Positions 1,965 to 62,228 of a stretch of DNA of 64,000 nucleotides are shown piece by piece. How positions within the stretch are numbered: position 1 is the stretch's first letter; every line of letters begins with the position of its first letter. Origin of the DNA: an uncultured Chloroflexia bacterium. Its GTDB lineage: Bacteria; Chloroflexota; Anaerolineae; JAAYZQ01. Both the position numbers and the translations under genes were made by a program. The notes beneath the pieces are model-generated. The model made no database searches. It saw only the letters and a list, made by a program, of their open reading frames with translations, and was not told the origin of the DNA. The stretch is from contig CAVOXA010000014.1 in the NCBI GenBank assembly GCA_963700285.1, forward strand, positions 896,001 to 960,000, written 5' to 3'.

Positions 1965-3944
1965 ATGACGAACATACCTTTGGAACAACCATACAAACCT
2001 GAGTTTGTTGAAGCCCAGCTCAAGGAATCCGGAAGCTGGCGCGCTGTGAGGCGTGTGCTTGAGATCCTCAGTGTGCTGCTCACGAGCTTCTTGTGGCGCG
2101 CGATCGACCGCTGGTCCTGGACCTACCGCCAGGGCGAGACGATCGAGGACCGCCAGCGGCGCCGTGCCGAATGGTTACTCGGCCGCATTATTTGGCTGGG
2201 GCCAACCTTTGTCAAGGTGGGACAAACCCTCAGTACACGACCCGATCTGCTGCCCCTATCCTATATCCAGGTGCTGAGCAAACTTCAGGACCAGATTCCA
2301 TCCTTTCCGAACGAGATCGCCTTTGCCTGCATCGAAGAAGAGCTAGGCTGGAAGCCGTGGACTCTGTATGACCAAATGGACCTGGAACCCTTTGCTGCCG
2401 CCAGCCTGGGCCAGGTATACTATGCCGTCACCCACGCAGGCGAGGAAGTGGCTGTGAAGGTCCAACGCCCCGACCTGTTACAGGTCATCAGCCTGGATCT
2501 AGCCCTGATACGTCGTCTGGCTACCATCGTTGAACGTTATCCAAAGCTGAGTCGGGGCCAGCCCTGGGTCAGCATCGTGGACGAGTTCGGGAGCAAGCTC
2601 TTTGAGGAACTGGACTATGTCCATGAAGCGCATCTCACAGAGCGGTTCAAGATCAACGTGGAACAAGTGCCCGGAGTCTATGCCCCCAGCGTCTACTGGG
2701 ATCTCACCAGCCGGCGGGTACTTACCACTGAGCTGATCCGTGGGATCAAGATCACCGAGAAAGAGAAACTTGAAGCGGCAGAAGTTGACATTCCTTTTCT
2801 GCTTAGCCAAGGTGTGCGGGCGAATCTAAAGCAGCTCTTCGAACACGGCCTCTTCCATGCAGATCCACACCCAGGCAACCTTCTGGTCCGTCCCGAAGAT
2901 GGCACCCTCGTGTTTATCGACTTTGGGATGATGGGCATCATTCAACCCGAGCAAAAGCTGCGCATCCTCGAAATCTTTATCGATGTCGTCAATCAGCGCC
3001 CAGAAAACCTGAAGGATAATCTGATTGCCCTCGGCTGCCTGAGACCCGACGCTCGCTGGGACGAGTTGGTACCCATCGCCAATGATCTTTTCAGAGCCCT
3101 GTTTGGCTCGGCGGATCGCCAGCATACCTTCCAGGATGTCACCAACAGTTTTGCTCCCTTGGTATACGAGTACGAGTTCCGCATCCCGGTAGACTTTGCC
3201 TATATTGTGCGGGCCATCATGACCCTCGAGGGCATCAGTCTACAACTGGCGCCCGACTTTGACATCTTTGCTGTGTCCGCACCCTATGCAGCCCGGATGA
3301 TGTTGACCTTTCCCGATCCCAGCCTGCGCAAGCGCCTGCTGGACGAACTGCTGACCGAGGATGGGACAGTAGACTGGAAACGGCTTGACGATCTGGCGGC
3401 ACTGGCAGCACACGACACCAGCTTTCGCCTTGAGACCGAGGGATTGGTCGAACCGGCGCTGGACATGATACTGTCGCCCGAGGGTGCAGGACTGCGAAAA
3501 GCGCTCATCGCCGATCTAATACACGCCCCAGAAAAGTCGTCTGACAGGATCGAAGGCCTGGCGCCATTGCTGACGACAGACCCCTCCTTCTCCGGTCGCG
3601 ATATCATGGACCGGATGGTGTCCTTTCTCCTGTCACCAGAGGGCGAGGAGACGCGCATGCAACTGGCTGCTGGACTGCGGGCCAACGGCAACGGAGGATT
3701 TGATCTTGTGCGCATCATGGAGCTGGTCGGAATGGCTGGACGGCTGCACCCAGAATTCAATGCCAGGACGCTGGCCCGTTCGCTGGGCGGTTACCTCTTT
3801 TCTGAGAAAGGGAAACCAGCCCGCAACCAACTGGTGGAGGCCGGCGCAATAAAGCTGCTGGACGGCATCGCCGGGCAGCTGAACCGGCTAGCGCGGCCAG
3901 CAGCCACCTCCCCTCGCAAAGTCGTACTCACAAAGAACGAATAG
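1965..3944 (+). CDS. ABC1/AarF/UbiB family atypical kinase
   Basis: LGPTFVKVGQTLSTRPDL, AAASLGQVY, VAVKVQRP, FHADPHPGN, DFGMMG. Confidence 0.9.
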   Translation: MTNIPLEQPYKPEFVEAQLKESGSWRAVRRVLEILSVLLTSFLWRAIDRWSWTYRQGETIEDRQRRRAEWLLGRIIWLGPTFVKVGQTLSTRPDLLPLSYIQVLSKLQDQIPSFPNEIAFACIEEELGWKPWTLYDQMDLEPFAAASLGQVYYAVTHAGEEVAVKVQRPDLLQVISLDLALIRRLATIVERYPKLSRGQPWVSIVDEFGSKLFEELDYVHEAHLTERFKINVEQVPGVYAPSVYWDLTSRRVLTTELIRGIKITEKEKLEAAEVDIPFLLSQGVRANLKQLFEHGLFHADPHPGNLLVRPEDGTLVFIDFGMMGIIQPEQKLRILEIFIDVVNQRPENLKDNLIALGCLRPDARWDELVPIANDLFRALFGSADRQHTFQDVTNSFAPLVYEYEFRIPVDFAYIVRAIMTLEGISLQLAPDFDIFAVSAPYAARMMLTFPDPSLRKRLLDELLTEDGTVDWKRLDDLAALAAHDTSFRLETEGLVEPALDMILSPEGAGLRKALIADLIHAPEKSSDRIEGLAPLLTTDPSFSGRDIMDRMVSFLLSPEGEETRMQLAAGLRANGNGGFDLVRIMELVGMAGRLHPEFNARTLARSLGGYLFSEKGKPARNQLVEAGAIKLLDGIAGQLNRLARPAATSPRKVVLTKNE

Positions 3945-3969
3945 CCGGCTCGCCAGACATCCCTGTGGG

Positions 3970-4278
3970 GGTGCGACACTGGCGTTTGCCTATCCCCAGT
4001 TCAAGGCCGGCGAGTTCGGCGGCGAGTTTTCGATGGGGAACGTGGACGACTATAAAGTTGGGGCCCGTGTTCTCAATCACAGGGGCAAGTTCTTCCTGTT
4101 ACGCACCGCAGATGGATTCAAGGCCCTGTATCAAGTCTGTACCCATCTGGGCTGCCTGGACCGCGAAATGGATGGCGGTTATGCTTACCCCTGTCACGGT
4201 TCCTTCTTCTCCCCTGACGGGAGACCATCACCGGTGGCCGGCCCGCCACCGCTGCGCCTGCCTGGGGCGCCCTGTTGA
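3970..4278 (+). pseudogene. Decayed Rieske [2Fe-2S] protein (cytochrome bc type) remnant
   Basis: CTHLGC is intact but box II reads YPCHGS instead of CPCHGS. The upstream in-frame GATLAFAYPQFKAGEFGG has no start codon or Tat leader. Confidence 0.6.
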
Positions 4279-4444
4279 GTACGCAGGAGATAGAGGACGC
4301 CATCGCGTTCCCAAGATCAAGACAGTAGTCACTCGGTATCCGAGCTGAGTCAACGAAGGCTTCAGCCGCGGGAAATCCCCAATGCTGCAGCCTTCTGTGT
4401 TGGACGGAGGAGAGCGGAAGTGCTGTGGGTTGAAAGGACAGTGT

Positions 4445-5906
4445 GTGAGAATTCTACTTGCTAGCCCAGAGTCGCACGTGTGGAACTCACGGGCTCACAT
4501 TCACATGGGGTTGGGCTACCTGGCCGGTTCGCTGCTAGAAGCCGGCTTCACCAACCTGACCCTCCACGACGACGCCGTCGAAACAGAGAACATTGCCGAG
4601 GCGCTGCAGCGCGCCACCGCGGAGGGCGAGCCCTATGACATCGTGGGCATTTCCAGCCCCACCCCCCTCATCAACGAGGCTTGGGATGCGGCCCGCCAGG
4701 CCAAGGAGGCGGGGGCCATCACCGTTCTCGGCGGACCCCACCTGACCCTCATGCCAGATGAATCAGCCCACAGGCCAGAGGTGGACCTGGTGGTCCGCGG
4801 CGAGGCAGAAGACACGCTCGTCGAGATCGTGAAACAGTTGGCGAACTGCAATCTGCAACTCACCGCCTGCAACCTGCGATCGATACTCGGGTTAACCTGG
4901 CGAAACGGGGATGGTCAGATAGTCCACAACCCGGCAAGGCCGCTGCGCGATGACCTGGACAATATCCCCTTTCCCGCTCACCAAATGTACAAAATGGAGC
5001 GCTATACCAACCTGCAGCCCCTGACAGATGGACTGGATCCCAACGCCCGGGCCTATACCATCGTCACCAGCCGCGGGTGCCCGTTCACCTGTACGTTCTG
5101 CTCCAAGCCGATCACGGGCGACACCTGGCGACCCCGCTCGGTGGAGAATGTGGTGGCCGAGTGGCGCTGGTTGGTGCAGGATCTGGGGGCCACCGAGATC
5201 GGCATTACCGACGATATCTGGAACCGGGATCTCGATCGGGCCAAGAACCTGTGCCGGGCGCTGATCCGCGAAGGGTTGAATACCACACCCTGGGTCACCG
5301 TCCACGGCATGAAAGTCAACTATGCGGATCCTGAGCTTTTCGAGCTGATGAAGGCCGCCGGCGCAAAGCGGGTGGGCTTTGGCGTAGAGAGCGGCGACGA
5401 GTATATCCTCTCCCGTGTCGTGCGCAAGGGGCAAACCCTGGCACAGACCCGCAATGCCTTCAAGTGGGCCAAAGCTGCCGGACTGCAGACCATGGGCTTC
5501 TTTGTCTTTGGCATGCCAGAAGAGACCGAAGAGACCATGGAAAAGACGACCAAATTGGCACTGGAACTGAGATCCAGACCTGGCCAATTTCATGATCGCC
5601 GCCCCTTATCCAGGCACGCAGCTCTACGATCTGCTGGAAAAGGAGGGCAACATCTTTAGCCATGACTGGACGGACTATGCCATCCACACCGACCAGGCCA
5701 AGTTCGAGATCGGTGACCTGAAGGCAGATCTTGTGGAGCGCAAGTGGCGCGAGGCCTACCGCCGCTTCTACTGGCGGCCAAAGCGGTTGATCAGGCGGTT
5801 GGCGATGCCCGACACCTGGCGGCATCTGCCCGCCCGCCTGCGAGATGCCCACCGTTTCTTTGTTGGCGGCAAGGGTACAAAGGGTGCCTCCAAGACGGCA
5901 GCTTGA
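4445..5906 (+). CDS. B12-binding domain radical SAM protein, frameshifted at ~5570
   Basis: [30 protein letters not shown]. Removing the extra A at 5570 restores [22 protein letters not shown] start follows GAAAGGA. Confidence 0.85.
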
Positions 5907-11217: not shown

Positions 11218-12618
11218 CTATAGGTATGGCTTTATCCGGCGCGCCGCCCGGCGACAAGCATCAGCAATTAGGTCAATGTCCGATTCAGTATGGGCAGTCG
11301 ACACGCTGCCGTGACCGCGCAACACGAACACGTCATTCAAGAGCAAAGCCAGATCCAGGACTTCATGGCCTAAGGCAATATCACATACAGACGGATCAAA
11401 CCAATCGGCTGGCCCGTTAAGCTGGGCATCTTCCTCAAAGGGAAAATGGAGGTAAAACATCGAGCTACCGGGCAGCACGGCGCTCCCGTTGCCCATGCAG
11501 CGGGCATAGATCCCCTCCTCAACAAATGCATTTTCCAAGGTATCACGAAGCTTTTCGCCCAACACCGCCAGCCGGGAATAGACCTCTTGTTCGTGAGCAA
11601 CCAGGTAGCTCAAGCATACCCTGGCAGCCAGCAGCGAAGCCGGATGGGCAGAGTAGGTGCCGCCAGAGAATTTGACCCTTCTACCGCCTTCGCGTCCCGC
11701 CAGCCCCATGACATCGGCCCTGCCCGTGACGGCAGATACGGGCATGCCGCCGCCGATAATCTTGCCAAAGGTGGACAGGTCGGGCTGGATGCCATACATT
11801 CCTCCCATGCTGCCCGCACGAAAGCGAAACCCAGAGATCACTTCATCAAGGATCAGCATCACGCCATATTGTTCGGTCAGTTCTCGGGCAATCTGCAGAT
11901 ATTCGGGCGTGGCCGATACAAAACCACCGATGCCGAGGAAGGGCTCGACAATAAAGCACGCCAGCCCATCGCCATACTCCCGAAAGTGAGCGCGCAACAT
12001 CTCGGGATCATTAAAGCTGGTCACAACAACCTTGTCGGTTACTGCAACGGGCACACCGTCGGATTCCACCTTTTTGAATCCACTGGCATTCTCCGCCGAG
12101 AAGCCGATGCCCTTGAGCGCCCAAGGCTGTGCGCCATGCCAGCCGCCGCCCACCTTCATCACCATCGTGCGCCCGGTGAAAGCACGGGACAGCATGATGG
12201 CATACATGGTGGCCAGAGCGCCACTGGTAGTAAAGCGTACCCGCTGCGCGCCGGTCTGCTGGCAGAGAATCTCGGCAACCTCTATTTGTAGGCGATCGGT
12301 GAAACCGGTCTGCAAGCCCAAGCCGCCCTCAAGCGCACGGGCCACTGCCGAGGTGACCACCTTGGGGTTGTGTCCTAGAATATTGGCAAAGTGCCCCTGC
12401 CACAGATCGAGGATGTGGTGCCCGTCCTCATCCGTGACCCAGGCTCCTTGTGCAGCAGCAATGCGAGGAGGGAAAGGCCACATGAGCCGCAGCGCATGGC
12501 TCCCACCATCGACCTGATAGCGTTCAGCTTTTTCGTTCAGTGCTCTGGATTCTGGCGAGTACCGCTTGTAGGCCTCTTCAAGCTCAGCCAGCAGGGGGGT
12601 ATAGTCCCTTGTCTTCAT
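11218..12618 (-). CDS. Class III PLP aminotransferase (GSA aminomutase-like)
   Basis: ILGHN, RVRFTTSG, LILDEVISGFR, PDLSTFGKIIGGGMP, GGTYS. Confidence 0.85.
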   Translation of the reverse strand: MKTRDYTPLLAELEEAYKRYSPESRALNEKAERYQVDGGSHALRLMWPFPPRIAAAQGAWVTDEDGHHILDLWQGHFANILGHNPKVVTSAVARALEGGLGLQTGFTDRLQIEVAEILCQQTGAQRVRFTTSGALATMYAIMLSRAFTGRTMVMKVGGGWHGAQPWALKGIGFSAENASGFKKVESDGVPVAVTDKVVVTSFNDPEMLRAHFREYGDGLACFIVEPFLGIGGFVSATPEYLQIARELTEQYGVMLILDEVISGFRFRAGSMGGMYGIQPDLSTFGKIIGGGMPVSAVTGRADVMGLAGREGGRRVKFSGGTYSAHPASLLAARVCLSYLVAHEQEVYSRLAVLGEKLRDTLENAFVEEGIYARCMGNGSAVLPGSSMFYLHFPFEEDAQLNGPADWFDPSVCDIALGHEVLDLALLLNDVFVLRGHGSVSTAHTESDIDLIADACRRAARRIKPYL

Positions 12619-12801
12619 GATCTCCTCCCTATGCAACTCTGCACACAGTGCCGATTGTAGCCCATTTCTCAGAATTGTGCAACAGCGCGGTGTTCCTGGG
12701 CTAGTCTGACACCGCCCCGGTCATATTTCGCCCAAGCGCCATCGAACTGCAGGTACCTCTCCACCGATCGACAAGGGTGCTAGGCTGTCATTCCACGCTG
12801 G

Positions 12802-14385
12802 TTATCGTCCCAGCACTCTGCCTGCCCGTGCCCGGGTGTGGACGCCGTCACGGAGCACCAATTCACCATTGACAATGACGTGCCCTATGCCTACAGGGTA
12901 CTGATGAGGTGCCTCGTAGGTCGCCTGGTCGGCCACGGTATCTGGATCCAGAATCACCAGATCGGCCTTGTAGCCTTTCTTCACCAGGCCACGATCCGGC
13001 CACCTGAGCTTCTGCGCCGGGAAGCCGCTCATCTTCCAGATGGCTTCTTCCAACGAAATCACGCCCTGCTCGCGGACGTAATGACCCAGCACGCGGGGGT
13101 AGGTACCGTAGCTACGCGGATGGGGCTTGCCTTTGGATAGAGGCCCCTCGGTAGCATGGCCAGAGGCGTCAGTGCCGATCATCATGGCCGGATGGCGCAG
13201 TTCTGCCTTGCGGTCATCCTCGGACATCATAAAGAGGATCATGCTGACGTCCAATTCCGTCTCCAGCAGCGCATCGTAGACCCAGTCGAGGGGTGATTTG
13301 CCAGCTTCTGCGGCCAGATCGGAGACGTATCGACCTTCGTATTCCCGCACCTTCGGGGAGGAGCTGATGAACACCTTGTCCCCCTCGGCAATGCGAAAGA
13401 AGCCCGTGGACCGCATATCATCCGACATCTTTTGGCGCGCTTCTGGCTCGGCCAAGCGCTTCAAGACGACCTCCTTGCCCCCTGCCTGCGCCCACTCTGG
13501 AAGTGCAGCCATCAGGCCGGTGGCGCCAGCCAGATAGGGATACATGTCGGCGGTGACGTCTAGGCCCTCAGCCTGCGCTTGATCAATCATCTCCAGGCCT
13601 TGAGCCGACTTTTCCCAATTTTCGCGTCTAGCGGCCTTGTAGTGGCTGATCTGCACCGAGGCGCCCGTCTCCCGGCCAACGCGGATGGCCTCGGCGATGG
13701 ATTCCAGCAGCATATCGCCTTCGTCCCTGAGGTGGCTAAAGTAGAAACCGTCTCTCTCACCGGCCGGCCGGGTGACGGCAACCACTTCTTCCGTAGAGGC
13801 ATACGATCCCGGCGGGTAGACGAGGCCGGTGCTGACGCCGATAGCGCCCTCATCCATCGCCCTGGCGACCTCGGCCTGCATTCGTACGATCTCCTCCTCA
13901 TTCGCCGGGTCAGCACTGAATGCTACCACCGCCGATCGCACCATCCCTTGCCCGACTAACGGCACCACGTTGACCGAGGTGCCAATCCGTCTCAAGTAGT
14001 CCAGGTAGCTGCCAAAGGTAGACCACTCGTCCCACGGCAAGGGCATGTCCTCACTCTCCATCATGGCCAGCACCTGCTCGCGGGTCTCGGCCAGCAGCGG
14101 GGCTGGCGAAGCCCCGCACTGCCCGACGACGACGGTGGTAATGCCCTGATGCACCAGACTATCCGCCGTCGGACCAATGGGCAGGGTAAAGTCAGCGTGC
14201 GAGTGCATGTCCACGAACCCTGGGGTTACCGCGCACCCAGAAGCGTCAATCACTTCCCCGGCCTCTGCGCCCTCCAGGTGGCCGATCTCAACGATACGAT
14301 CGCGCTCTATGGCTACGTCCGCCGGGTACCGAGGCGCACCAGAACCATCCGCAACCAGGCCATTCTTAATCAGAATATCAAGCAT
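12802..14385 (-). CDS. N-acyl-D-amino-acid deacylase (D-aminoacylase)
   Basis: PGFVDMHSHAD, GQCG, SHLRDEG, HPRSYGTYPRVL. Confidence 0.92.
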   Translation of the reverse strand: MLDILIKNGLVADGSGAPRYPADVAIERDRIVEIGHLEGAEAGEVIDASGCAVTPGFVDMHSHADFTLPIGPTADSLVHQGITTVVVGQCGASPAPLLAETREQVLAMMESEDMPLPWDEWSTFGSYLDYLRRIGTSVNVVPLVGQGMVRSAVVAFSADPANEEEIVRMQAEVARAMDEGAIGVSTGLVYPPGSYASTEEVVAVTRPAGERDGFYFSHLRDEGDMLLESIAEAIRVGRETGASVQISHYKAARRENWEKSAQGLEMIDQAQAEGLDVTADMYPYLAGATGLMAALPEWAQAGGKEVVLKRLAEPEARQKMSDDMRSTGFFRIAEGDKVFISSSPKVREYEGRYVSDLAAEAGKSPLDWVYDALLETELDVSMILFMMSEDDRKAELRHPAMMIGTDASGHATEGPLSKGKPHPRSYGTYPRVLGHYVREQGVISLEEAIWKMSGFPAQKLRWPDRGLVKKGYKADLVILDPDTVADQATYEAPHQYPVGIGHVIVNGELVLRDGVHTRARAGRVLGR

Positions 14386-14448
14386 TTTCTCCTCCTTGAG
14401 TCTTCGTTGCAGTCACCAGGTTGTCTCGCCCTTCTATACTGTTCGAAA

Positions 14449-15336
14449 TCAATCCATTTGGCGTGGATCGAGCGCATCACGCAGCCCGTCCCCGAACAGG
14501 TTGAAGGCCAACACAGTGAGGAAAATCATGATTCCGGGGAAAATTGAGATGTGAGGGTACAGCGTGATGTAGGCCCGACCATCAGCCAGGGTGCCACCCC
14601 AGGACGGGTTCGGGGGCTGGATGCCCAAGCCAAGGAACGAGAGCGCGGACTCGAGGATGATGATCGAGCCGATACCCAACGTGGCCAGCACGATGACCGG
14701 CGCCAGCACATTGGGTAGCAAGTGGCGCAGAATGATGCGCGAGTCCTTCACGCCCAACGCCCGGGCTGCCACGATGAATTCCTTCTCCTTCAGGCTCAGG
14801 ACGTCGGCACGAACCACCCGGGCATAGGTGGCCCAGGTAGTGACGCCAATGACGATCAGGGTGGTGGTCAAGCTGGGGCCCAGGACCGCAGCCAGCATGA
14901 TGAGCAGCGCAATGAGGGGGAAAGCCATCAGCGTGTCTGTCAGGCGCATCAGGGACGAGTCAACCCGGCCGCCGAAATAGCCAGCCGTGACACCGACAGC
15001 CACACCGATAACAATGGCCACAGCGCTGGCCACTAGACCGACCGTCAACGCCACCCGCGAGCCATAGATGACGCGGCTCAGTAGATCACGCCCTACGTGG
15101 TCCCAGCCCATCGGGTGCTCCCGGGATGGCGCGACACCGCGCATGCCTGAAACGATCTCGAGCGGGTCGTAGGGTGAGAGGTAGTCGGCGAAAACCGCCA
15201 TCAAGATCACGAGGATAATGAAGGCCAAGCCGACCAGGGCTGCTCGGTTGGCTCGGAAACGACGCCATGACTGCCGGACCTCCGACCTATGAACGTATCC
15301 ACCATCCAGCTCCGCCACTTGCCGATCATCTGCCAT
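14449..15336 (-). CDS. Peptide/nickel ABC transporter permease (DppC-like)
   Basis: GRDLLSRVIYG, EAA-like EFIVAARALG, C-terminal GDGLRDALDP. Confidence 0.93.
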   Translation of the reverse strand: MADDRQVAELDGGYVHRSEVRQSWRRFRANRAALVGLAFIILVILMAVFADYLSPYDPLEIVSGMRGVAPSREHPMGWDHVGRDLLSRVIYGSRVALTVGLVASAVAIVIGVAVGVTAGYFGGRVDSSLMRLTDTLMAFPLIALLIMLAAVLGPSLTTTLIVIGVTTWATYARVVRADVLSLKEKEFIVAARALGVKDSRIILRHLLPNVLAPVIVLATLGIGSIIILESALSFLGLGIQPPNPSWGGTLADGRAYITLYPHISIFPGIMIFLTVLAFNLFGDGLRDALDPRQMD

Positions 15337-15362
15337 GTGTTCTACCCTTGTCCAGTCTCAGG

Positions 15363-16295
15363 CTATTCAATGCGTATGCGCGGGTCGACGAAGGCATAGA
15401 CCAGGTCGGTCAGCAGATTCACCACGACGACAATCACAGCCAGCAGAAAGACGATGGACTGCACGACCTGGTAATCGAGGCGGAACACCGAGTCGGTGAA
15501 TAACCGGCCTATCCCCGGGATGGCAAACACCGTCTCAACGACAATGGTGCCGCTGAGGATAAAGGCGACCTGAAGCCCGATAACAGTCACCACCGGCAGC
15601 AGCGCGTTGCGCACCGCGTGCTGCACAATGACGGCATTCTCGGCCAGGCCCTTGGCCCGAGCCGTACGCACGTAATCCTCCTGCAACACCTCGATGGTGC
15701 CACTGCGCATCACGCGCGTGAGCGTGGCCGTCTGGGCGGTGACCAGCACGATGACCGGTAGGATATAGCCCTTGGCAGACCGGAGGCCAAACGGGGGCAC
15801 CAGGCCCAGCATGAGGGAGAAGACGACGATCAACATCAAGCTGATCCAGAAATTCGGCAGGGCCACGCCTATGGTGGATCCGACGGTGGCCGAATAGTCA
15901 AAGAGCGAGTTGCGTTTCACTCCGGCCACAATCCCGGCCGGGATGGCGATCGCTAGCGAAACCGCTAGCGCTATGAGGTTCAACTTGAGCGTCACCGGTA
16001 TGGCTTCGAAGATCATATCTCGCACCGGAACGCCAGTTCGAATCAGCGAATCGCCAAAATCCCCCCGAAACATGTTGAACAGCCACACTAGGTACTGCTC
16101 GTGATAGGGTTTGTCGAGACCCCATTTGTGCCGGATGGCCTCCATCTGATCCTGGCTGATGCGGACGGCTCCCTCTCCCAGCAGGAGATAGACCGGGTCG
16201 CCAGGCAGCAGGCGCATGATCGCAAAAGTCGCCAGGCTGATCAAAAAGATGACGACCAGCCCTTGAAGCAAACGGACGGTCAGGTATCGGCTCAT
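15363..16295 (-). CDS. Peptide/nickel ABC transporter permease (DppB-like)
   Basis: LPGDP, DYVRTARAKGL, VETVFAIPGIG, DPRIR. Confidence 0.93.
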   Translation of the reverse strand: MSRYLTVRLLQGLVVIFLISLATFAIMRLLPGDPVYLLLGEGAVRISQDQMEAIRHKWGLDKPYHEQYLVWLFNMFRGDFGDSLIRTGVPVRDMIFEAIPVTLKLNLIALAVSLAIAIPAGIVAGVKRNSLFDYSATVGSTIGVALPNFWISLMLIVVFSLMLGLVPPFGLRSAKGYILPVIVLVTAQTATLTRVMRSGTIEVLQEDYVRTARAKGLAENAVIVQHAVRNALLPVVTVIGLQVAFILSGTIVVETVFAIPGIGRLFTDSVFRLDYQVVQSIVFLLAVIVVVVNLLTDLVYAFVDPRIRIE

Positions 16296-52144: not shown

Positions 52145-52372
52145 AGGCCCAGTTCAGATGCAAGGTCTTTGAGTGTTACAGACGCCACTGGCTGCCAGCC
52201 TCCCGAGCTCCCAGTCACTCAAAACGTTTTGGATACCTGCTCCCATTTTGAAAAATGTGCAGTCTCACCCATGGCGTCTCTGCGAAACTCGCGCTTGCTG
52301 TCACGGGCCAGATGCTTTACAATCCGAGTGGCTGGAACAAGGCCCAACCGCAGAAGGAGCCAAGACGAGATC

Positions 52373-53176
52373 ATGAGTTCTGAGACATCGGTCGCCCTTG
52401 CAGCAACTGCGCACCAACCCGATGAGCGACTGGCCGGCATGGTCGCTTGCCATCTACCAGCGCTGGTAGGCTGCTACACCTCTGTAACGGCATTCTGTTC
52501 GCAAGAGACTCACCCAAGCATCCTGGATCTACTGCGGCTGCACGGCGTCATCGTACACATCGACTCCGAAGTGTCAGCCGGAATCCAGCGCATCGGCGAC
52601 GTGCGACGCCACACCATTCGCGCGGGTCTGGAGGCCGGTACGTCGCACCTGCAGATGTGTGACTTTGACCGCGCCATCCACTGGGTCGCCCGCTACCCAC
52701 AGGAACTAGAGGCCGTGATTGATGACATCCCCAACTACGATCTGCTGGTCCTGGGACGCACCGACCGGGCCTGGGCCACCCACCCGCCCTACCAGGCGGA
52801 GACAGAACCACTCTTCAACCGGGTTTTCGACCTGGTGACCGGGCTGGCATGGGACGTAGGTGCCGGCTCACGGGGGCTCTCGCGCCGCGCTGCGGAGCTG
52901 CTGCTGCAAGTGTCTGAGGAACGAACGGTGGGCGTGGACGCAGAGTGGCCGCTACTCATTCTTGAGCAGGATGGTTATGTCGTGGGACACCGGCTCTGCG
53001 AGGGGTTGGAGTTCGAGACGGCCGACCGTTTTGGGCCGGAAATCGAAGCGGCAGGCAGCTATCAAGCCTGGGAGGCAAAGGTGAACGCAGATCCTAAGCA
53101 GTGGGTCTTTCGCCTCCAGGTGGCATTGATGATCGCCCAGGCAGCTGTTCGCCACGGTGAACGAGATGACCGATAG
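52373..53176 (+). CDS. Hypothetical protein, possibly GT-A glycosyltransferase-like
   Basis: SD AAGGAG and upstream TTGCTG-17-TACAAT. Motifs DFDRAIHW, LGRT..THP, GSRGLS, GLEFETAD. Confidence 0.7.
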   Translation: MSSETSVALAATAHQPDERLAGMVACHLPALVGCYTSVTAFCSQETHPSILDLLRLHGVIVHIDSEVSAGIQRIGDVRRHTIRAGLEAGTSHLQMCDFDRAIHWVARYPQELEAVIDDIPNYDLLVLGRTDRAWATHPPYQAETEPLFNRVFDLVTGLAWDVGAGSRGLSRRAAELLLQVSEERTVGVDAEWPLLILEQDGYVVGHRLCEGLEFETADRFGPEIEAAGSYQAWEAKVNADPKQWVFRLQVALMIAQAAVRHGERDDR

Positions 53177-54700: not shown

Positions 54701-55471
54701 ATGACCGGTAGCAGATTGCTGACTGTCACTGCTCACCCCGACGACGAGTCATTCCGCTGTGGTGGCACGTTGGCCTTGCTGGCCCGGCGCGGTATTCGCG
54801 TGCAGCTACTCACGGCTACACGGGGTGAAGCCGGCTCTCGCGGCGATCCACCCTTGTGCCGCGCCCACGAACTGGCCGCCATGCGCGAACGCGAGTTGCG
54901 CAACGCTTGTACCGCCTTGGGCATCGAGCCTCCACGCTTTCTGGAATACCTCGACGGCACGCTGGCCGATGTGGACGAAGAAGAGGCCACCGCTCAGTTG
55001 ACGGCGATCATCCAGGAAGTACAGCCCCAGGTGCTCCTCACCTGGCCGCCTGACGGTCTGTCGGGGCATCCCGACCACGTGGCCGTGAGCCGCTGGACAT
55101 CTCTGGCCTTTGAGCGGACAGCCGCCTTGGGGCCGGACGCCCCGGTGGCTCTCTACCACTTGGCTGTGCCGCGCTGGGTGGCCAAAGCCCTGGGACTGTC
55201 CCACCTGCATGACGTGCCCGATGAGCAGGTTACCCTGACCGTGGACGTGACTCCGGTCTGGGAACAGAAACTGGCGGCTATGGGCTGCCACCGCACCCAG
55301 ATGGGTGGATCGCCTATCCTGAGCGAACCAGAAGAGAAGCGACGGCTGTTCCTGGGGACAGAGCACTTTCGACTGGCAATGATCCGGTCGGACCCTTCGG
55401 CGGGCTCAGGGTGGGCTCTGCCAATTGGCCCGGAAGGCAGCTTTCTTGAGGGACTGGGGGAGAACAACTGA
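54701..55471 (+). CDS. PIG-L/LmbE family deacetylase (MshB/Mca/BshB-like)
   Basis: AHPDDES..GG, ATRGEAG, RERELR, GHPDH, HRTQ. SD GGAGGAG. Confidence 0.9.
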   Translation: MTGSRLLTVTAHPDDESFRCGGTLALLARRGIRVQLLTATRGEAGSRGDPPLCRAHELAAMRERELRNACTALGIEPPRFLEYLDGTLADVDEEEATAQLTAIIQEVQPQVLLTWPPDGLSGHPDHVAVSRWTSLAFERTAALGPDAPVALYHLAVPRWVAKALGLSHLHDVPDEQVTLTVDVTPVWEQKLAAMGCHRTQMGGSPILSEPEEKRRLFLGTEHFRLAMIRSDPSAGSGWALPIGPEGSFLEGLGENN

Positions 55472-56491
55472 TGAAAGATGCTATCAAAGTGAGTAGTCTG
55501 ACCAAGTACTACGGTCGTCCGGAAGCAGGCGTACTGGCCGTAGACCACATCAACTTTCAGGTGCAAGAGGGCGAGGTCTTTGGTTTCCTGGGACCCAACG
55601 GGGCGGGCAAGACGACCACCCAGCGGATGCTGACCACCCTGCTGGAACCGACCGAAGGTTGCATCACCATCCACGGCCACGACCTGGCCCACGACGCCTA
55701 CCCGGTCAAGCGGCAGATGGGTCTGGTGCCGGAGGAATCGAACGTCTACACCGAACTGACCGCATGGGACAACTTGATGTTCACTGCTAAACTCTACCGT
55801 GTGGGTCGCGCCGAGCGGGCTGCGCGGGCACGGGAGTTGCTGGAGGTCTTTGGCCTGTGGGAGAAGCGGGACGTGAAAGCGGAGAACTTTTCCAAAGGGA
55901 TGCGGCGACGGCTGAGCATCGCCATGGCCATCATCCACAAGCCGGCGCTCCTCTTCTTGGACGAGCCGACGCCGGGGCTGGACGCCCAGAGCGCCCGTGC
56001 CATCCGCGATCTGATCCGCCGCTTGAACAGCCGAGGGGACGACGATCTTTCTGACCACGCACCAGATCGAGGAGGCCAACCAGCTCTGCGACCGGGTGGC
56101 CATCATCGACCACGGCCAGATCGCGGCCATTGACACCCCAGAACAGCTGAAACAGGCATTCCGGCGGGTACAGTCGGTGGAGGTGGCATTGGAGCCCAAA
56201 GGGCAGACGCATGGTCAGGCGCTGGGCACCTTGCCGGGGGTGACCACGTCGGTCAAGATGGGAGATAAATGGCGGCTGTACACCAAAGACCCGTCGGTGC
56301 TCCTACCACAGGTGATGGACTATGCCAACTCCCGTAAATTGCGGGTCGTCAGTCTAAATACTCTCGGCCCCAGCCTGGAGGACGTTTTCCTCGAGATCAC
56401 CGGGCAACAGGTGGGCACGGTGCGTCACGAGGCGCAAGAGGGTAGGCCTCGGCGGCGGGGAATGAAGAGTGGAATGGGCGGTGGACAATGA
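55471..56491 (+). CDS. ABC-2 exporter ATP-binding protein, frameshifted at ~56029
   Basis: Walker A GPNGAGKTT, FSKGM, LFLDEPT. Removing one A restores LNAEGTTIFLTTH..CDRVAII. Ends with PSLEDVFL. Confidence 0.9.
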
Positions 56492-58470: not shown

Positions 58471-58919
58471 CGTTGACGCATTCTCCCCTTTCTTATCTCA
58501 ATCCCTTGGGCTTCGCCGTAGCTACAGCCAGGGCCATGCGAACACAACCTCGGTCGCTCCGGAGGCCCGGTCAGACAAGGTCGATCCTGCCGGAAGTGTA
58601 GCATAAAGCTCGCTTTTCTGGAAATCACCTGGTTGTGCTTGATCAAGACACATCAACGCCATAGAATAGCGCTAAAGCGCACATTGAATGAAGCCGCTCC
58701 CGCAACGCGAACAAGCTGCGAAGGTTCATTGGGGAGGAAAATGGCCTGGGCGCTGCCTTGGCGCAATAGGGTGGCAAATGACCCAGCACAGGGGGGCAGG
58801 CGAGCTAGCCTGTTTCGTCTCGCGAGGCATCTGCCCCCAGAAGCAACCGAGCCCGCCAGAGACATGCTCCAGTGGACTCGCGCGTCCCGGGCCCAGGATG
58901 CAGATTCTGCAGGAGAATC

Positions 58920-59402
58920 CTACTCACTCTCAGCTTGGCTGGCGATCGAGTCGCCCCACAACTGGCAAGCAGTTTCCAGCCCCGACTCGGCGATCTTTTT
59001 GGCTGCTATCGTGGCGACCACGATGGCAATCGCAGGGAGTGCAGCCACTTGGGCAACCAACGTCGGCGCCAGGGCAGCCGCCAGCATCTTGACCCCATCC
59101 TGAAGGGCAGTCATAAGTTCGTCGTGCTGCTCATTGCCCTTGTTACACAGCACGTCGTACAACTTGGGTTCCAGCTTGTCCCACCACTCCTGGCCATAGG
59201 CAACCATCTTGGCCGTCCACTCGGGTCCAGCCTCGGTGTCAGCGGCGAAAGCCACCTCCGGCGGATCCCACATCTGGAGTTCGTCTTGGGCGGATCCCTC
59301 GTCTTCGGCCTGGACACGGGCGGCGAGGGTCAGCATCAAGCCAGCCATGTCGTCCTCCCACAGAGCATCTACGGCTTCAACACGGGGCTCTCTGTCTTCC
59401 AT
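58920..59402 (-). CDS. Possible separately translated 160-aa protein with C-terminal hydrophobic helices (in frame with the CHAT ORF)
   Basis: Internal AAGGAGAGG SD is followed by a TGATG stop/start overlap at 59400-59404. Confidence 0.5.
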   Translation of the reverse strand: MEDREPRVEAVDALWEDDMAGLMLTLAARVQAEDEGSAQDELQMWDPPEVAFAADTEAGPEWTAKMVAYGQEWWDKLEPKLYDVLCNKGNEQHDELMTALQDGVKMLAAALAPTLVAQVAALPAIAIVVATIAAKKIAESGLETACQLWGDSIASQAESE

Positions 59403-62126
59403 CAGTCCTCTCCTTTCGGCACCCTGCAGGGGGCCATCTGCAGGGAGCACCTGCCCATCCAGTCTCAAATTAGCATCCGAATAAAGGGTATAGGCCAGGG
59501 CCAGCGGATTGCCTTCCTCGAGATAGCGGCGGCGAAGGGTCAGCAGAATCGCACCGGCGCTCTCACCCTGGAAAAAGAGTGTCAAGAATGCACGGGAAAA
59601 ATCGTCGGCAAAGAGGGTGTTCATCGAACACTCGGTACCGATGACCGCCCTGGCGCCTCGTTGGAGGAAGAACGGCACAAAACCATCCGACAACGAGGGC
59701 AGTACCTGGGCCGATTCGCACATGTTCAAAAATACGAGTGGATGCTGCGAGAACTCGGACGGCACGGTCTCCTTGAGCATCGTCAGGGGAATCTTGCCCC
59801 GCGTCAGGCGCAGCCAAGAGTCACTGACGTCAAACAGGTCATCCAGATGCTCGCGGACCGATTGCGGACGGTCCTTGAGGGAGGTGGCTGCCTGTTGGGC
59901 AAACTGGCTGACCAGATCCGTGTCAAGTTGGATGTCGGTCGCAATCCGCTCCGTGTAGCCATGACAGAAGAAATAGTAGATATCCTGGTCTGCACCAGCC
60001 AGCTTCCGCCCCATCTTGCGGCGGTCTGTTACAATCTCAGGCAGTAGCCGATGGCCTGACCGGGAGTCCAAAGCGGCAAAGAAAGCTTTCTGCTCTGCCG
60101 CGCCCACCAGGCGCTCGTACATGCCCACACTTATGCGCAATGCATCATCAGTGGGCATCTCCGTCTGGGCCTGGCGATAGGTATCCAACATCTTGCCGGT
60201 AAGAATGACAATCTCATAACGCCAACCCCAGAACCTTTCCACGTCCACCGGCTCATCATCGTCCCACGGTTGCGCGGCATAGACCAGGCTCCAGGGAAAA
60301 CAAAAGTCTCCGGCCAGATCCACAACCTGGATGGTGGAGCCATCCGGCAAGATCTCCTCCATCCAGTTCCCCAGGGCCTGCGCGGAGGCGCTGGCAAAGA
60401 GCTTGAGATACAACTGGCGGCCAACTTGAGCCAAGGCGCGTGTGGCCATTCGATAGGTTCGAGCGTCCCGTTCCTGCAAAAGATCAAAGGCCTGCACTAC
60501 GTTGTACAATTGGCGCCGGGCCTTGGTGATCAGGTGTGTCAGGTCGTCGCGCGTCATGTGCACGTGGCAGAAAAGTTCTACGACCCCTGCGACCTGCTCA
60601 CTACCAGCGGTTGCGCCCTTGTCCCCGGGGTCAGGATCCACCAGAAAAGTGAAGCGGTAGCGGTCGGCGCCATCGCGCGTGATGGTCAGGCTCAACTCGC
60701 GCGGTGGAAGCTTGGCCATGTCCGGAAAGTTGGCAGTTCGGGCATGGATCAACTGGGCACTTTGGGGCTGCGCACTATGCGCTATCTCACCGGCAGCTAC
60801 CACCTCGGCGCGTACGCTAAAGGTCTGTACCATACAAGTCTGGTAGAACAGGCAGACCTCCAGTGTGGCCAGGTCTGCCCCCCGGGTACGGGCCAGTGGC
60901 ACGGTCTGAAAGCGCACCAGGCCAGAATCACCCTTCTTGGGCAGCCGGAGCGACTGAGTTGGCTCGAGGATGTCAAAATCCTGTGAGTTGAGGCTGACGT
61001 ACAGCAGGGCATCTTCCGCCTGGGGTTCGACAATGGCCTGGGCGCCGGCAGGGGCACGATCCCAGTCAACGATGGAATCTCGGAGCAAGCGCCCAACATT
61101 CAGCGCCAGATGATAGGCCCGGCCCACCACCAGTGGCTGCCTGCTGGGAACCACTCGGCGATCCGCATCTTCGAACCAGAGATTGACAAACCTAGGCTCC
61201 GGTTCAGGCTCGAGGAGGGCCCTTGGCAGAGAGTACACGCTGTCTAACACACTGTTGGGAATCGTATCCAGGTCAAAGCCCCCGCCCTTCGCAGTACCAT
61301 AGGGAAAAGCATCCCGCAGGCCCCCGGGATACAAACTGGCCGGGCTGCCATCCCGAACCAGTACCAAGGCCTTGGAGCGTGAGAGGCTCTTGGCCTGCGT
61401 GCCACTCAGATCTTCCAGATCACGGACCTGACACGGTTCTGAGAATGCAGCCTCAAACTGTTGGAGAGGCAGTTCCCAGACTTTGGCCGGATCGAGCGTC
61501 GTTCTCGCGCTCAGTTCTGCAATCGCGCGATTCAACGCAGCTTTGGTTGACAGCTTGAACCCTCCGCCAGCCAACTGCAGGAGCACGTATACCAGGGGCG
61601 ATTCGCGGTACGGCCTGAGATCCTTGGCCACGCGGGCCAGGGGAGCTTTCTCTGGAAACCAGACAAAGGGCTCGCCAGTCCCCTCCGGTACACTTTGGTC
61701 AAAAAGATCAAAGCTCAGTCCCTGGCTGCTCTTGTAGCTTTCGATCTCTCCAATTGGGCGGACAAGGCCTACACGCTTGCCTTTGCTGGTGACAATGATA
61801 GGCATGCGGCGACGAGAAGCCAGCGCTTCGGCTTCGCGGTACTCTGGTGGCTGATCGCTTATCTCCCAGGGTCTGGGACACAGGTCTTCAGCCAAAGATC
61901 CAATGGGTAACAGGAGGATGCGCCGCCCCAGCTTCTTGGCAAGCTCTTTGAGCTGCGGCACGGTGGTGGGCACGGCACGCCCATCTGGCAGAAGAATGAC
62001 CATAGCCATCAGATGCTGTGCCGGCCCTCCGGCTGCCAGCAGCCGGTCCCGAACTTGGGCCACGGAGTCGGTGCCCTGAAGCGTCAGGACATCACCGGCT
62101 TGAAACTGATCCCACGGGATAAACAT
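58920..62126 (-). CDS. CHAT-domain (caspase-like) protease with two CBS-like N-terminal repeats, a beta-rich middle domain and a hydrophobic C-terminal module
   Basis: FPWSLVY, FWGWRY, catalytic YFFCHG and VFLNMCES, GARAVIGTE, NPLALAY. SD GGAGG before the ATG. Confidence 0.85.
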   Translation of the reverse strand: MFIPWDQFQAGDVLTLQGTDSVAQVRDRLLAAGGPAQHLMAMVILLPDGRAVPTTVPQLKELAKKLGRRILLLPIGSLAEDLCPRPWEISDQPPEYREAEALASRRRMPIIVTSKGKRVGLVRPIGEIESYKSSQGLSFDLFDQSVPEGTGEPFVWFPEKAPLARVAKDLRPYRESPLVYVLLQLAGGGFKLSTKAALNRAIAELSARTTLDPAKVWELPLQQFEAAFSEPCQVRDLEDLSGTQAKSLSRSKALVLVRDGSPASLYPGGLRDAFPYGTAKGGGFDLDTIPNSVLDSVYSLPRALLEPEPEPRFVNLWFEDADRRVVPSRQPLVVGRAYHLALNVGRLLRDSIVDWDRAPAGAQAIVEPQAEDALLYVSLNSQDFDILEPTQSLRLPKKGDSGLVRFQTVPLARTRGADLATLEVCLFYQTCMVQTFSVRAEVVAAGEIAHSAQPQSAQLIHARTANFPDMAKLPPRELSLTITRDGADRYRFTFLVDPDPGDKGATAGSEQVAGVVELFCHVHMTRDDLTHLITKARRQLYNVVQAFDLLQERDARTYRMATRALAQVGRQLYLKLFASASAQALGNWMEEILPDGSTIQVVDLAGDFCFPWSLVYAAQPWDDDEPVDVERFWGWRYEIVILTGKMLDTYRQAQTEMPTDDALRISVGMYERLVGAAEQKAFFAALDSRSGHRLLPEIVTDRRKMGRKLAGADQDIYYFFCHGYTERIATDIQLDTDLVSQFAQQAATSLKDRPQSVREHLDDLFDVSDSWLRLTRGKIPLTMLKETVPSEFSQHPLVFLNMCESAQVLPSLSDGFVPFFLQRGARAVIGTECSMNTLFADDFSRAFLTLFFQGESAGAILLTLRRRYLEEGNPLALAYTLYSDANLRLDGQVLPADGPLQGAERRGLMEDREPRVEAVDALWEDDMAGLMLTLAARVQAEDEGSAQDELQMWDPPEVAFAADTEAGPEWTAKMVAYGQEWWDKLEPKLYDVLCNKGNEQHDELMTALQDGVKMLAAALAPTLVAQVAALPAIAIVVATIAAKKIAESGLETACQLWGDSIASQAESE

Positions 62127-62164
62127 GGCGCCTCCCCCCTGGTACGCTAAAAATAGGCATCTAT

Positions 62165-62228
62165 ATTATACCACACTTATTCAAGCCAGTCCAACCGGGT
62201 TGATCTATCTTCCCGACTGTGGTAAACT
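62165..62228. promoter_or_regulatory. Back-to-back divergent promoters
   Basis: Minus strand has TG-G-TATAAT (62165-62173). Plus strand has TTGATC-17-TAAACT (62200-62228). Confidence 0.55.

Follow-up and report, generated by a model that had tools for sequence, protein, structure and literature searches.

The window analysed here is a 64,000-nucleotide (nt) stretch of DNA from an uncultured Chloroflexia bacterium (GenBank assembly GCA_963700285.1, contig CAVOXA010000014.1, positions 896,001 to 960,000). Its reverse strand carries an open reading frame (ORF) of 1068 residues at 58920-62126, which we confirm as real in the window and whose GC content is that of the surrounding DNA. We find that the encoded protein joins two predicted CBS pairs, an Ig-like domain and a CHAT protease to a C-terminal helical module (Table 1), and that relatives of this module are usually encoded right beside proteases. 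We propose that the module is likely the substrate of the protease and would act on membranes once cut.

A search of a protein collection returned 46 relatives at an expectation value (E) of 0.001 or less, one of them 99% identical, and 39 of the 47 sequences were taken into the alignment of close homologues. The closest loci are from Chloroflexota or Anaerolineae. The genome holds a single copy of the gene; neither tblastn nor a profile search found a paralogue in it.

A separase-type CHAT protease with an intact dyad

The protein is predicted, largely from its modelled fold, to carry a CHAT protease of the separase/Csx29 type with an intact dyad, and proteolysis is its predicted activity. 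The full-length AlphaFold2 model has a mean predicted local distance difference test score (pLDDT) of 79.2 and a predicted template modelling score of 0.52, so its domains are reliable while their packing is not. Residues 475-893 align with separase (5fc2_B; Z 24.2, root-mean-square deviation (rmsd) 4.3, 317 aligned residues) and with Csx29 (7y9x_B; Z 22.9, rmsd 4.1, 308 aligned), the latter also being matched by Foldseek at E 4.2e-10. The catalytic His and Cys are invariant in all 39 aligned close homologues and in 23 of 23 CHAT domains that include distant ones, where the His-Gly and the Cys are present. The Pfam model PF12770 scores the window protein at 15.9 bits, against a curated cut-off of 24, and matches 35 of the 39 homologues at E ≤ 0.05 (best 2.4e-10). 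Preceding the protease is a beta-sandwich, of which residues 309-445 align with the Ig-like sandwich 5jpm_B (Z 8.7, rmsd 2.6, 101 aligned), and which matched no Pfam family. NCBIfam likewise gave no match for the full protein, its N-terminal part or its C-terminal part.

An initial annotation, made from the letters of the sequence, had described an intact His/Cys dyad, a CHAT protease and a beta-rich domain behind the N-terminal repeats. All of these stand: the alignments to separase and Csx29 support a two-part fold around the invariant dyad, and the beta-rich domain is the Ig-like sandwich.

Among 19 distant CHAT proteins, the N-terminal regions contain no consistent M-G or L-G motif for self-cleavage. 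At three loci the protease gene is in pieces (L015:7242-9854, L024:6585-10055 and L027:3649-5242), which reflects either assembly error or decay.

The helical module is a protein family of its own

Sequence comparisons indicate that the C-terminal module is an independent protein family. Searched against 1.84 billion representatives, its profile finds 777 clusters (at 50% identity) with E ≤ 0.001, and 483 with E ≤ 1e-10; most of the 150 clusters listed are about 155 residues long. Stand-alone module proteins have about 160 residues, and the spacing between their start and the first conserved motif is that of Met909 in the window protein. The initial annotation had treated this region as a C-terminal part of the protease protein. 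It is indeed tightly linked to proteases, but it is a gene family in its own right, and in the window the ORF contains a ribosome site and an ATG (59402) for it.

Two cysteines are invariant in an alignment of 132 members. A hydrophobic hairpin is also a near-constant feature: 131 of the 132 exceed a hydropathy of 1.6 in a 19-residue window, with a median uncharged run of 29 residues, and an N-terminal hydrophobic run is found in none. Within the whole window protein, the sole 19-residue windows above a hydropathy of 1.5 fall in residues 1012-1047, in agreement with the hydrophobic C-terminal helices of the initial annotation. The model of the isolated module is all-helical (pLDDT 90.5), and its N-terminal two-helix piece is acidic (58 residues, 17 acidic and 3 basic).

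The module found no structural neighbour at Z ≥ 5 among 48,161 structure chains (best Z 4.4), and Foldseek found nothing in the Protein Data Bank (PDB; best E 0.56) or among viral models (best E 0.69). These negatives neither exclude a known family nor prove a new fold. There was no credible match in Pfam or NCBIfam, three single weak NCBIfam matches among 23 members being disregarded, and the 30 matches in the Atlas are all to unnamed clusters, with scores up to 0.96. Searches of a largely open literature found no published description of the module or of a CBS-gated CHAT protease, and nothing that combined CBS domain, caspase, sensor and antiphage.

Some members are fused to other enzymes. 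In P0074, P0160, P0175, P0075, P0180, P0198 and P0212, one to three module copies follow lysozyme-like, amidase or GDSL enzymes at the C terminus. The loops and linkers of these modules often read E-F-G, L-E-S or L-E-A, stretches that could be sites for a Glu-specific protease. Like these fusions to cell-wall hydrolases, a lysozyme gene (L071:4453-6337, +) and a VanY peptidoglycan-binding gene (L074:2136-3047, -) adjoin cyanobacterial module copies.

The module is linked to proteases from both sides

We examined linkage from the protease side and from the module side. Protease motifs retrieved 28 loci; in six of them the module is fused to the protease and in 18 it lies directly downstream (24 of 28, one downstream copy being frameshifted), and the 12 junctions measured show gaps of between -4 and 29 nt. 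The four exceptions are L006, where the module lies elsewhere in the genome, L008, where the contig ends, and L019 and L028, L028 having a weak match. These loci come from taxa that include Acidobacteriota, a cyanobacterium, Gemmatimonadota, an actinobacterium, an alphaproteobacterium and Methanoculleus.

Searching two phyla with the module profile gave 11 new strong loci, after one weak match (E 6.6e-4) was dropped. A CHAT or C14 gene lies within the fetched stretch (at most 13 kb) at 10 of the 11. In five of these ten the protease is carried on an nSTAND1 NTPase protein, and four of these five have WD40 repeats inside the stretch; the remaining locus, L078, has WD40 and NB-ARC neighbours only, with no detected protease. 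Four of the cyanobacterial genomes contain one CHAT or C14 gene per 160-220 kb, so a 13-kb stretch would hold one by chance 6-8% of the time. Because several loci are near-copies of one another, we attach no p-value to this linkage. A survey of the class added two more distant strong matches, L045, which faces a CHAT-like gene, and L044, which has no protease among the neighbours scanned. Thus the tie between the C-terminal module and proteases, on which the initial annotation had staked its proposal, is seen in both directions of search.

The surroundings of the pairs are varied. The HEAT-CHAT/module pair at L012 is flanked by a prokaryotic ubiquitin-type cluster (Multi_ubiq, E2, JAB-ThiF, DUF6527) and by a gene of TPR-CHAT type (3277-5791, +; 12266-15841, -). 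Other neighbours encode Tc-toxin-type domains (L010:2-5398, +), a TIR-WD40-Roc protein (L016:7175-10762, -) and a Pvc16-type protein (L021:2789-3367, -).

N-terminal CBS pairs as a probable, variable input

Structure models and comparisons indicate that the N-terminus consists of two CBS pairs, hence four CBS motifs. VIA-align superposes residues 1-126 on the CBS-pair protein 1pbj_A (Z 8.6, a middling value obtained for pair 1 only; rmsd 3.1, 109 aligned), and Foldseek matches four-CBS proteins, including the AMP-bound 3ddj at E 2.5e-5 and AMPK chains. We therefore read each N-terminal repeat as a CBS pair. In the full-length model the second pair has the same order of secondary structures as the first. 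Pfam CBS matches occur in seven of the 39 homologues, second pairs included, and not in the window protein, and BLASTP does not match repeat 1 to repeat 2. A single repeat profile finds both, however, and detects two or three copies in 41 of the 46 proteins examined (two in 36, three in five; L009 has one). Sequence searches of the PDB with alignments A1 and A2 returned chance-level rows only. The Atlas gave the N-terminal part a best score of only 0.86, with a CBS cluster third, which serves as a lead only.

The initial annotation had proposed two similar repeats of CBS-like fold, each followed by an FDL-containing linker. The shared profile confirms their similarity, but each repeat is a CBS pair rather than a single CBS. 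The fold itself is supported by the 1pbj_A alignment, by Foldseek and by Pfam in homologues, and the linkers are present at residues 139 and 284. An FDL-type motif follows the first repeat in 40 of the 40 full-length proteins examined. These F-D-L-F-D type motifs are better conserved than the CBS pairs, and the helical insert that separates the catalytic His from the Cys contains a similar stretch, D-D-L-F-D-V; the motifs could have a docking or autoinhibitory role. In many homologues, the linker after the last CBS pair has a V-x-R-G/S/A/E motif (alignment A1, columns about 490-505), a possible candidate site for an Arg-specific protease as judged from the alignment; the window protein has K-G-G a little later instead.

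Nucleotide binding by CBS domains is associated with the motif G-h-h-T/S-x-x-D. Its Asp is replaced by Gln in the first pair of the window protein and by Ala in the second. Scoring the first motif of each pair only, we find T/S-x-x-D complete in 13 of 40 first pairs and eight of 46 later pairs (21 of 86), with V-M-T-A-R-D in P0007 as an instance of the complete motif. The CBS pairs are also the least conserved part of the protein, at 36-37% mean identity versus 57-58% for CHAT. Furthermore, among 17 protease ORFs of distant relatives, the same Ig-CHAT core is preceded by HEAT repeats (four), carboxypeptidase-regulatory-like domains (two), an HU-like domain (one) or unassigned regions. The N-terminus thus appears from these sequences to be a swappable input to the Ig-CHAT core. 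The CBS pairs are probably the site of the input signal, with no need to bind adenine nucleotides; adenine-nucleotide sensing is possible but unsupported. The nucleotide- or energy-state sensor of the initial annotation is accordingly not supported so far, given that the binding Asp is absent from the aligned motifs of both window pairs and that distant relatives carry other N-termini.

A candidate cleavage loop

The loop before the long third helix of the module is variable: among 164 rows it reads M (41%), L or A, followed by G (66%). It is M-G in 11 of the 14 copies tied to this CHAT subfamily and E-A-G in the window protein, and in 10 cyanobacterial copies that lie beside other proteases in the module-side test the position is R or K. 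Csx29 is described as cutting after Met427 (Kato et al., 10.1101/2022.08.17.504292), and cleavage of R-G motifs by a caspase-like protease has been reported. The comparison of loops is suggestive only of a cleavage site near A966-G967 that is matched to the protease. The full-length model has a low-confidence loop at residues 961-965. The M-G group and the R/K group of loops are also two clades.

Inheritance and fusion history

Of the 39 aligned homologues, 23 retain the fusion of protease and module, at identities that reach as low as about 41%. On a quick tree of the 39 Ig-CHAT regions, which cannot tell gain from loss of fusion, the fused and unfused states require at least seven changes, five of them forced by well-supported branches. 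The internal start is kept in three of the seven fused loci examined (window, L001 and L009) and lost in four, and a Met lies in the internal-start zone in 13 of 33 fused proteins, related sequences included, versus 18% expected. The length of the protease-module linker differs widely among fused loci.

The module is found in 11 of 301 genomes of the class, counting its own genome and one weak match, and in 8 of 301, 3 of 301, 1 of 401 and 1 of 301 genomes of four phyla, with the centre genome counted each time. The locus is inherited and is not a mobile island.

Promoter, neighbours and features of the locus

The initial annotation had described a stand-alone unit with its own promoter between unrelated genes. 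There is a promoter-like site. The promoter scan by itself was not above chance (two found versus 1.2 expected), but TGGTATAAT upstream of the gene is kept in the window and in four of the six relatives examined (L001, L003, L004 and L005). The scan for terminators gave nothing above chance. One RNA run yielded a single 272-nt contig at depth 2, to which we give no weight.

The neighbours scanned are housekeeping genes, with no defence genes among them. The flanking genes are unrelated in function, as described, but the upstream neighbour, a divergent methyltransferase, is common to five of nine close loci, and the locus therefore appears inherited rather than a recent island. Between the gene and a downstream aminotransferase lies a single-copy gap (58481-58915) that is 75% identical over 429 nt in a same-genus relative, the genes flanking it having 90-95% protein identity. 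Further away, an ABC-transporter ATPase appears split over two overlapping ORFs of 220 and 131 residues (55471-56491, +), probably by a frameshift, and a 335-residue ORF (52169-53176, +) has no Pfam match.

Table 1. Features of the gene and its upstream region, in window coordinates (aa, residues).
Feature	Position	Strand	Basis
Whole ORF, 1068 aa: CBS pair - CBS pair - Ig-like - CHAT - helical module	58920..62126	-	Sequence, model, alignment
Sigma-70-type promoter, extended -10 (TG-TATAAT); -35 at 62193, -10 ends at 62165	62165..62193	-	Scan; -10 conservation across relatives
Ribosome-binding site GGAGG of the full-length gene	62131..62135	-	Sequence
Predicted CBS pair 1, aa 1-126	61749..62126	-	Structural alignment; no Pfam CBS match for this copy itself
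Linker motif F-D-L-F-D, aa 139-143, conserved	61698..61712	-	Alignment
Predicted CBS pair 2, aa 151-272	61311..61676	-	Secondary-structure order of pair 1; shared profile; Foldseek; Pfam in second pairs of homologues
Second FDL-type linker motif F-D-L-D-T, aa 284-288	61263..61277	-	Motif scan
Ig-like beta-sandwich, aa 310-462	60741..61199	-	Model; structural alignment; no Pfam family
CHAT pseudo-protease half, aa 475-655 (boundary approximate)	60162..60704	-	Model; layout as in Csx29
CHAT active protease half, aa 656-893	59448..60161	-	Profile, Foldseek, structural alignment
Catalytic His722	59961..59963	-	Sequence; invariant in alignments
Catalytic Cys803	59718..59720	-	Sequence; invariant in alignments
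Internal ribosome site AAGGAG, 7-nt spacer, ATG (Met909); predicted start of free module	59400..59415	-	Sequence; ATG at 59402
Helical module, aa 909-1068; candidate protease-activated effector	58920..59402	-	Profile family, model, linkage
Loop motif D-T-E-A-G, aa 963-967; putative cleavage site	59226..59240	-	Model, family alignment
Invariant Cys994 of module	59145..59147	-	Family alignment
Uncharged helical hairpin of 29 residues, aa 1014-1042	59001..59087	-	Hydropathy, model
Invariant Cys1054 of module	58965..58967	-	Family alignment

Proposed mechanism and alternatives

We read the gene as a cassette of a CHAT protease and a helical partner, in which the partner is likely the substrate and would act on membranes once cut; we put the probability of this reading at about 0.5. 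It is built on the domain layout, the intact dyad, the independent partner family, the linkage to proteases and the hydrophobic hairpin, all of which are observed. Because the module is usually encoded right beside proteases, it is likely a membrane-damaging effector of the cut-to-activate kind. The N-terminal region would keep the protease inactive in the absence of a signal. Once signalled, the protease would cut the module loop near A966-G967 and thereby remove the acidic N-terminal two-helix piece, and the freed hairpin would insert into the membrane, with the cell being arrested or killed. In addition, the internal start would provide substrate in free form, as two-gene relatives do.

A broader version of this proposal is more tentative, and we rate it somewhat short of an even chance. 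It holds that the module represents widespread, all-helical death effectors of a new fold, which are activated by cleavage, disrupt membranes and carry a two-cysteine switch, and whose loop motif changes with the protease, be it CHAT, caspase or, through PDC-M35B (see below), trypsin-like. In this Chloroflexota family, such an effector would be fused to a CBS-gated separase-like protease, with an internal start for extra free substrate.

Several observations weigh against the effector proposal. Structure comparison gave the module no likeness to a known pore-former, for which gasdermin, Bcl-2 and colicin-type folds were considered (best Z 4.4), it is unlinked to a protease in genome G215, and at L044 and L078 no protease was detected beside it. 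One to three copies are fused to lysozyme-like, amidase or GDSL enzymes, and several of the cyanobacterial loci are near-copies. The similarity of proteases and that of their modules are correlated over 12 pairs (rho 0.81, 0 of 5000 permutations), which speaks for the proposal, but co-evolution and shared descent are not separated in this result. The loop is only moderately conserved, reads A-G rather than M-G in the window, and lies at a helix start in the isolated module model; its Gly may therefore be structural. Within its own family, the module is present in seven of the nine other genomes, is single-copy and is often beside the same housekeeping genes, and one query each of plasmids and phages gave no match.

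The chief rivals of the effector proposal are an adaptor or inhibitor role, which draws on the hydrolase and GDSL fusions, and a non-lethal regulatory role, which draws on the inheritance pattern. As a regulator or adaptor of the protease, the module would inhibit it in the manner of securin, anchor it to the membrane or serve as a docking domain that brings enzymes together in one complex. Its presence in one to three copies on peptidoglycan hydrolases and a GDSL enzyme would be in keeping with this, as would its repeated fusion to and separation from the protease (at least seven changes) and its lack of a match to a pore-forming fold. A membrane-sensor role was also the first proposal for EACC1, the small partner of another caspase-fold protease (Kaur et al. 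2020, PMC7159879), but EACC1 itself was later shown to be a cleaved pore-former. In addition, pairing with CHAT, C14 and trypsin-like proteases is more readily understood for a substrate than for an inhibitor specific to one fold, and we regard the adaptor role as rather unlikely. It is a little less probable again that the module is cut but that in this lineage of filamentous Chloroflexota the cassette switches a stress or developmental response without killing the cell, and does not serve in death or anti-phage defence. Such a switch would fit the presence of the module in seven of the nine other genomes of its own family, the shared methyltransferase neighbour, the conserved sigma-70-type promoter and the lack of defence genes among the neighbours scanned. 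Elsewhere, however, the distribution is patchy, both in the class and in the four phyla, the cyanobacterial copies sit with STAND-WD40 caspase genes, and the remote homologue of the module is a PADLOC defence candidate.

Two further alternatives concern the input and the fusion. The four CBS motifs might gate the protease by energy state through binding of AMP, ATP or a cyclic nucleotide, which is compatible with the effector proposal and affects its input only. The supported CBS fold, the matches to 3ddj and AMPK chains and the complete motif of homologues such as P0007 speak for this; the Gln and Ala substitutions in the window, the low share of complete motifs, the poor conservation of the pairs and their varying number (from one to three) make it doubtful. 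The fusion might, on the other hand, be an incidental loss of a stop codon, with two proteins made in practice and the fused form being without a separate function. An internal ribosome site and start, at a distance from the first motif like that of stand-alone copies, in the window, L001 and L009, and the widely differing linker lengths, would be expected from this, but the retention of the fusion down to about 41% identity and the loss of the internal start in four of seven fused loci make it improbable.

Activation of effectors by proteases is a central principle of bacterial immunity. If the effector proposal is correct, an all-helical membrane effector released by cleavage would add to the bacterial counterparts of the proteins that execute cell death in eukaryotes. 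The module forms hundreds of divergent clusters in several bacterial phyla and a methanogen, and could be the candidate substrate for many orphan CHAT and caspase-STAND-WD40 genes. The one-gene form, which unites sensor, protease and substrate in a single chain, is a convenient test construct.

Comparison with known systems

The EACC1 and EACC2 protease-effector systems (Kaur et al. 2020, PMC7159879; Kaur et al. 2021) offer the nearest comparison for the layout. As described by Kaur et al. 2020 and Evans et al. 2025 (PMC12642450), the EACC1-caspase system likewise has a small non-enzymatic partner with a hydrophobic segment beside a caspase-fold protease, attached protease domains that vary widely (here CBS, HEAT, HU-like, carboxypeptidase-regulatory-like and unassigned) and a predicted removal of an N-terminal inhibitory piece. 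Four other small protease partners have been shown to be latent toxins, which speaks for the effector proposal. The two systems differ in gene order, EACC1 being upstream of its protease and the module 3' of the protease or fused to it. EACC1 has one membrane helix in an alpha/beta frame and modelled beta-strand rings, whereas the module consists entirely of helices, a hairpin among them, and has an invariant Cys pair. In our protein, a protease of the two-part separase type lies on the C-terminal side of the variable region. The Pfam EACC1 model matched none of 12 stand-alone module copies.

The protease itself resembles that of Csx29-Csx30 (Craspase; 10.1101/2022.08.17.504292) and separase, which share its two-part CHAT fold and His/Cys dyad. 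In contrast to Craspase, the protein has no tetratricopeptide repeats and its partner is unlike Csx30 in size or fold. No CRISPR genes occur among the neighbours scanned, the whole genome not having been searched for Cas genes.

Gasdermins are beta-pore proteins. Bacterial gasdermins and their caspase-like proteases are alike in that the protease releases membrane damage, as proposed for the module, but the module is all-helical, and no gasdermin is among the structural matches listed for it.

A candidate relative is the PADLOC model PDC-M35B (148-166 positions). It matches the window module at E 2.9e-4 and 10 of 10 stand-alone copies (best E 5.7e-11), a weak but recurrent match that covers mainly the C-terminal half. 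Its companion, PDC-M35A, is a trypsin-like serine protease and not a CHAT protease. At L080 (920-2154, -) and L081 (604-1853, +), the gene of a trypsin-like protease and that of a small helical M35B-like protein downstream of it are 5 nt apart, and the module profile matches these two proteins at E 6.5e-5 and 9e-4 (among about 12 ORFs). Unlike the module, neither has the Cys pair. PDC-M35B appears by sequence to be a remote homologue rather than a family member. The PDC-M35A matches listed for the module's own genome are weak and located elsewhere, none of them adjacent to the module. Since a trypsin-like protease is followed so closely by a small helical relative of the module, PDC-M35 is probably a protease-effector pair, and the wider superfamily would pair with three protease types (CHAT, C14 and trypsin-like). 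The PDC set of candidate systems was introduced by Payne et al. (10.1101/2024.01.29.577857), where M35 is not named in the main text; we found no mention of PDC-M35 by name and no experimental test of it in the largely open literature. The module would provide a testable mechanism for this candidate system.

A 2025 survey counts ten families of protease-activated effectors, and the module is none of these ten by the profile and fold tests run. The module would work like a protease-effector module but belongs to no named family tested.

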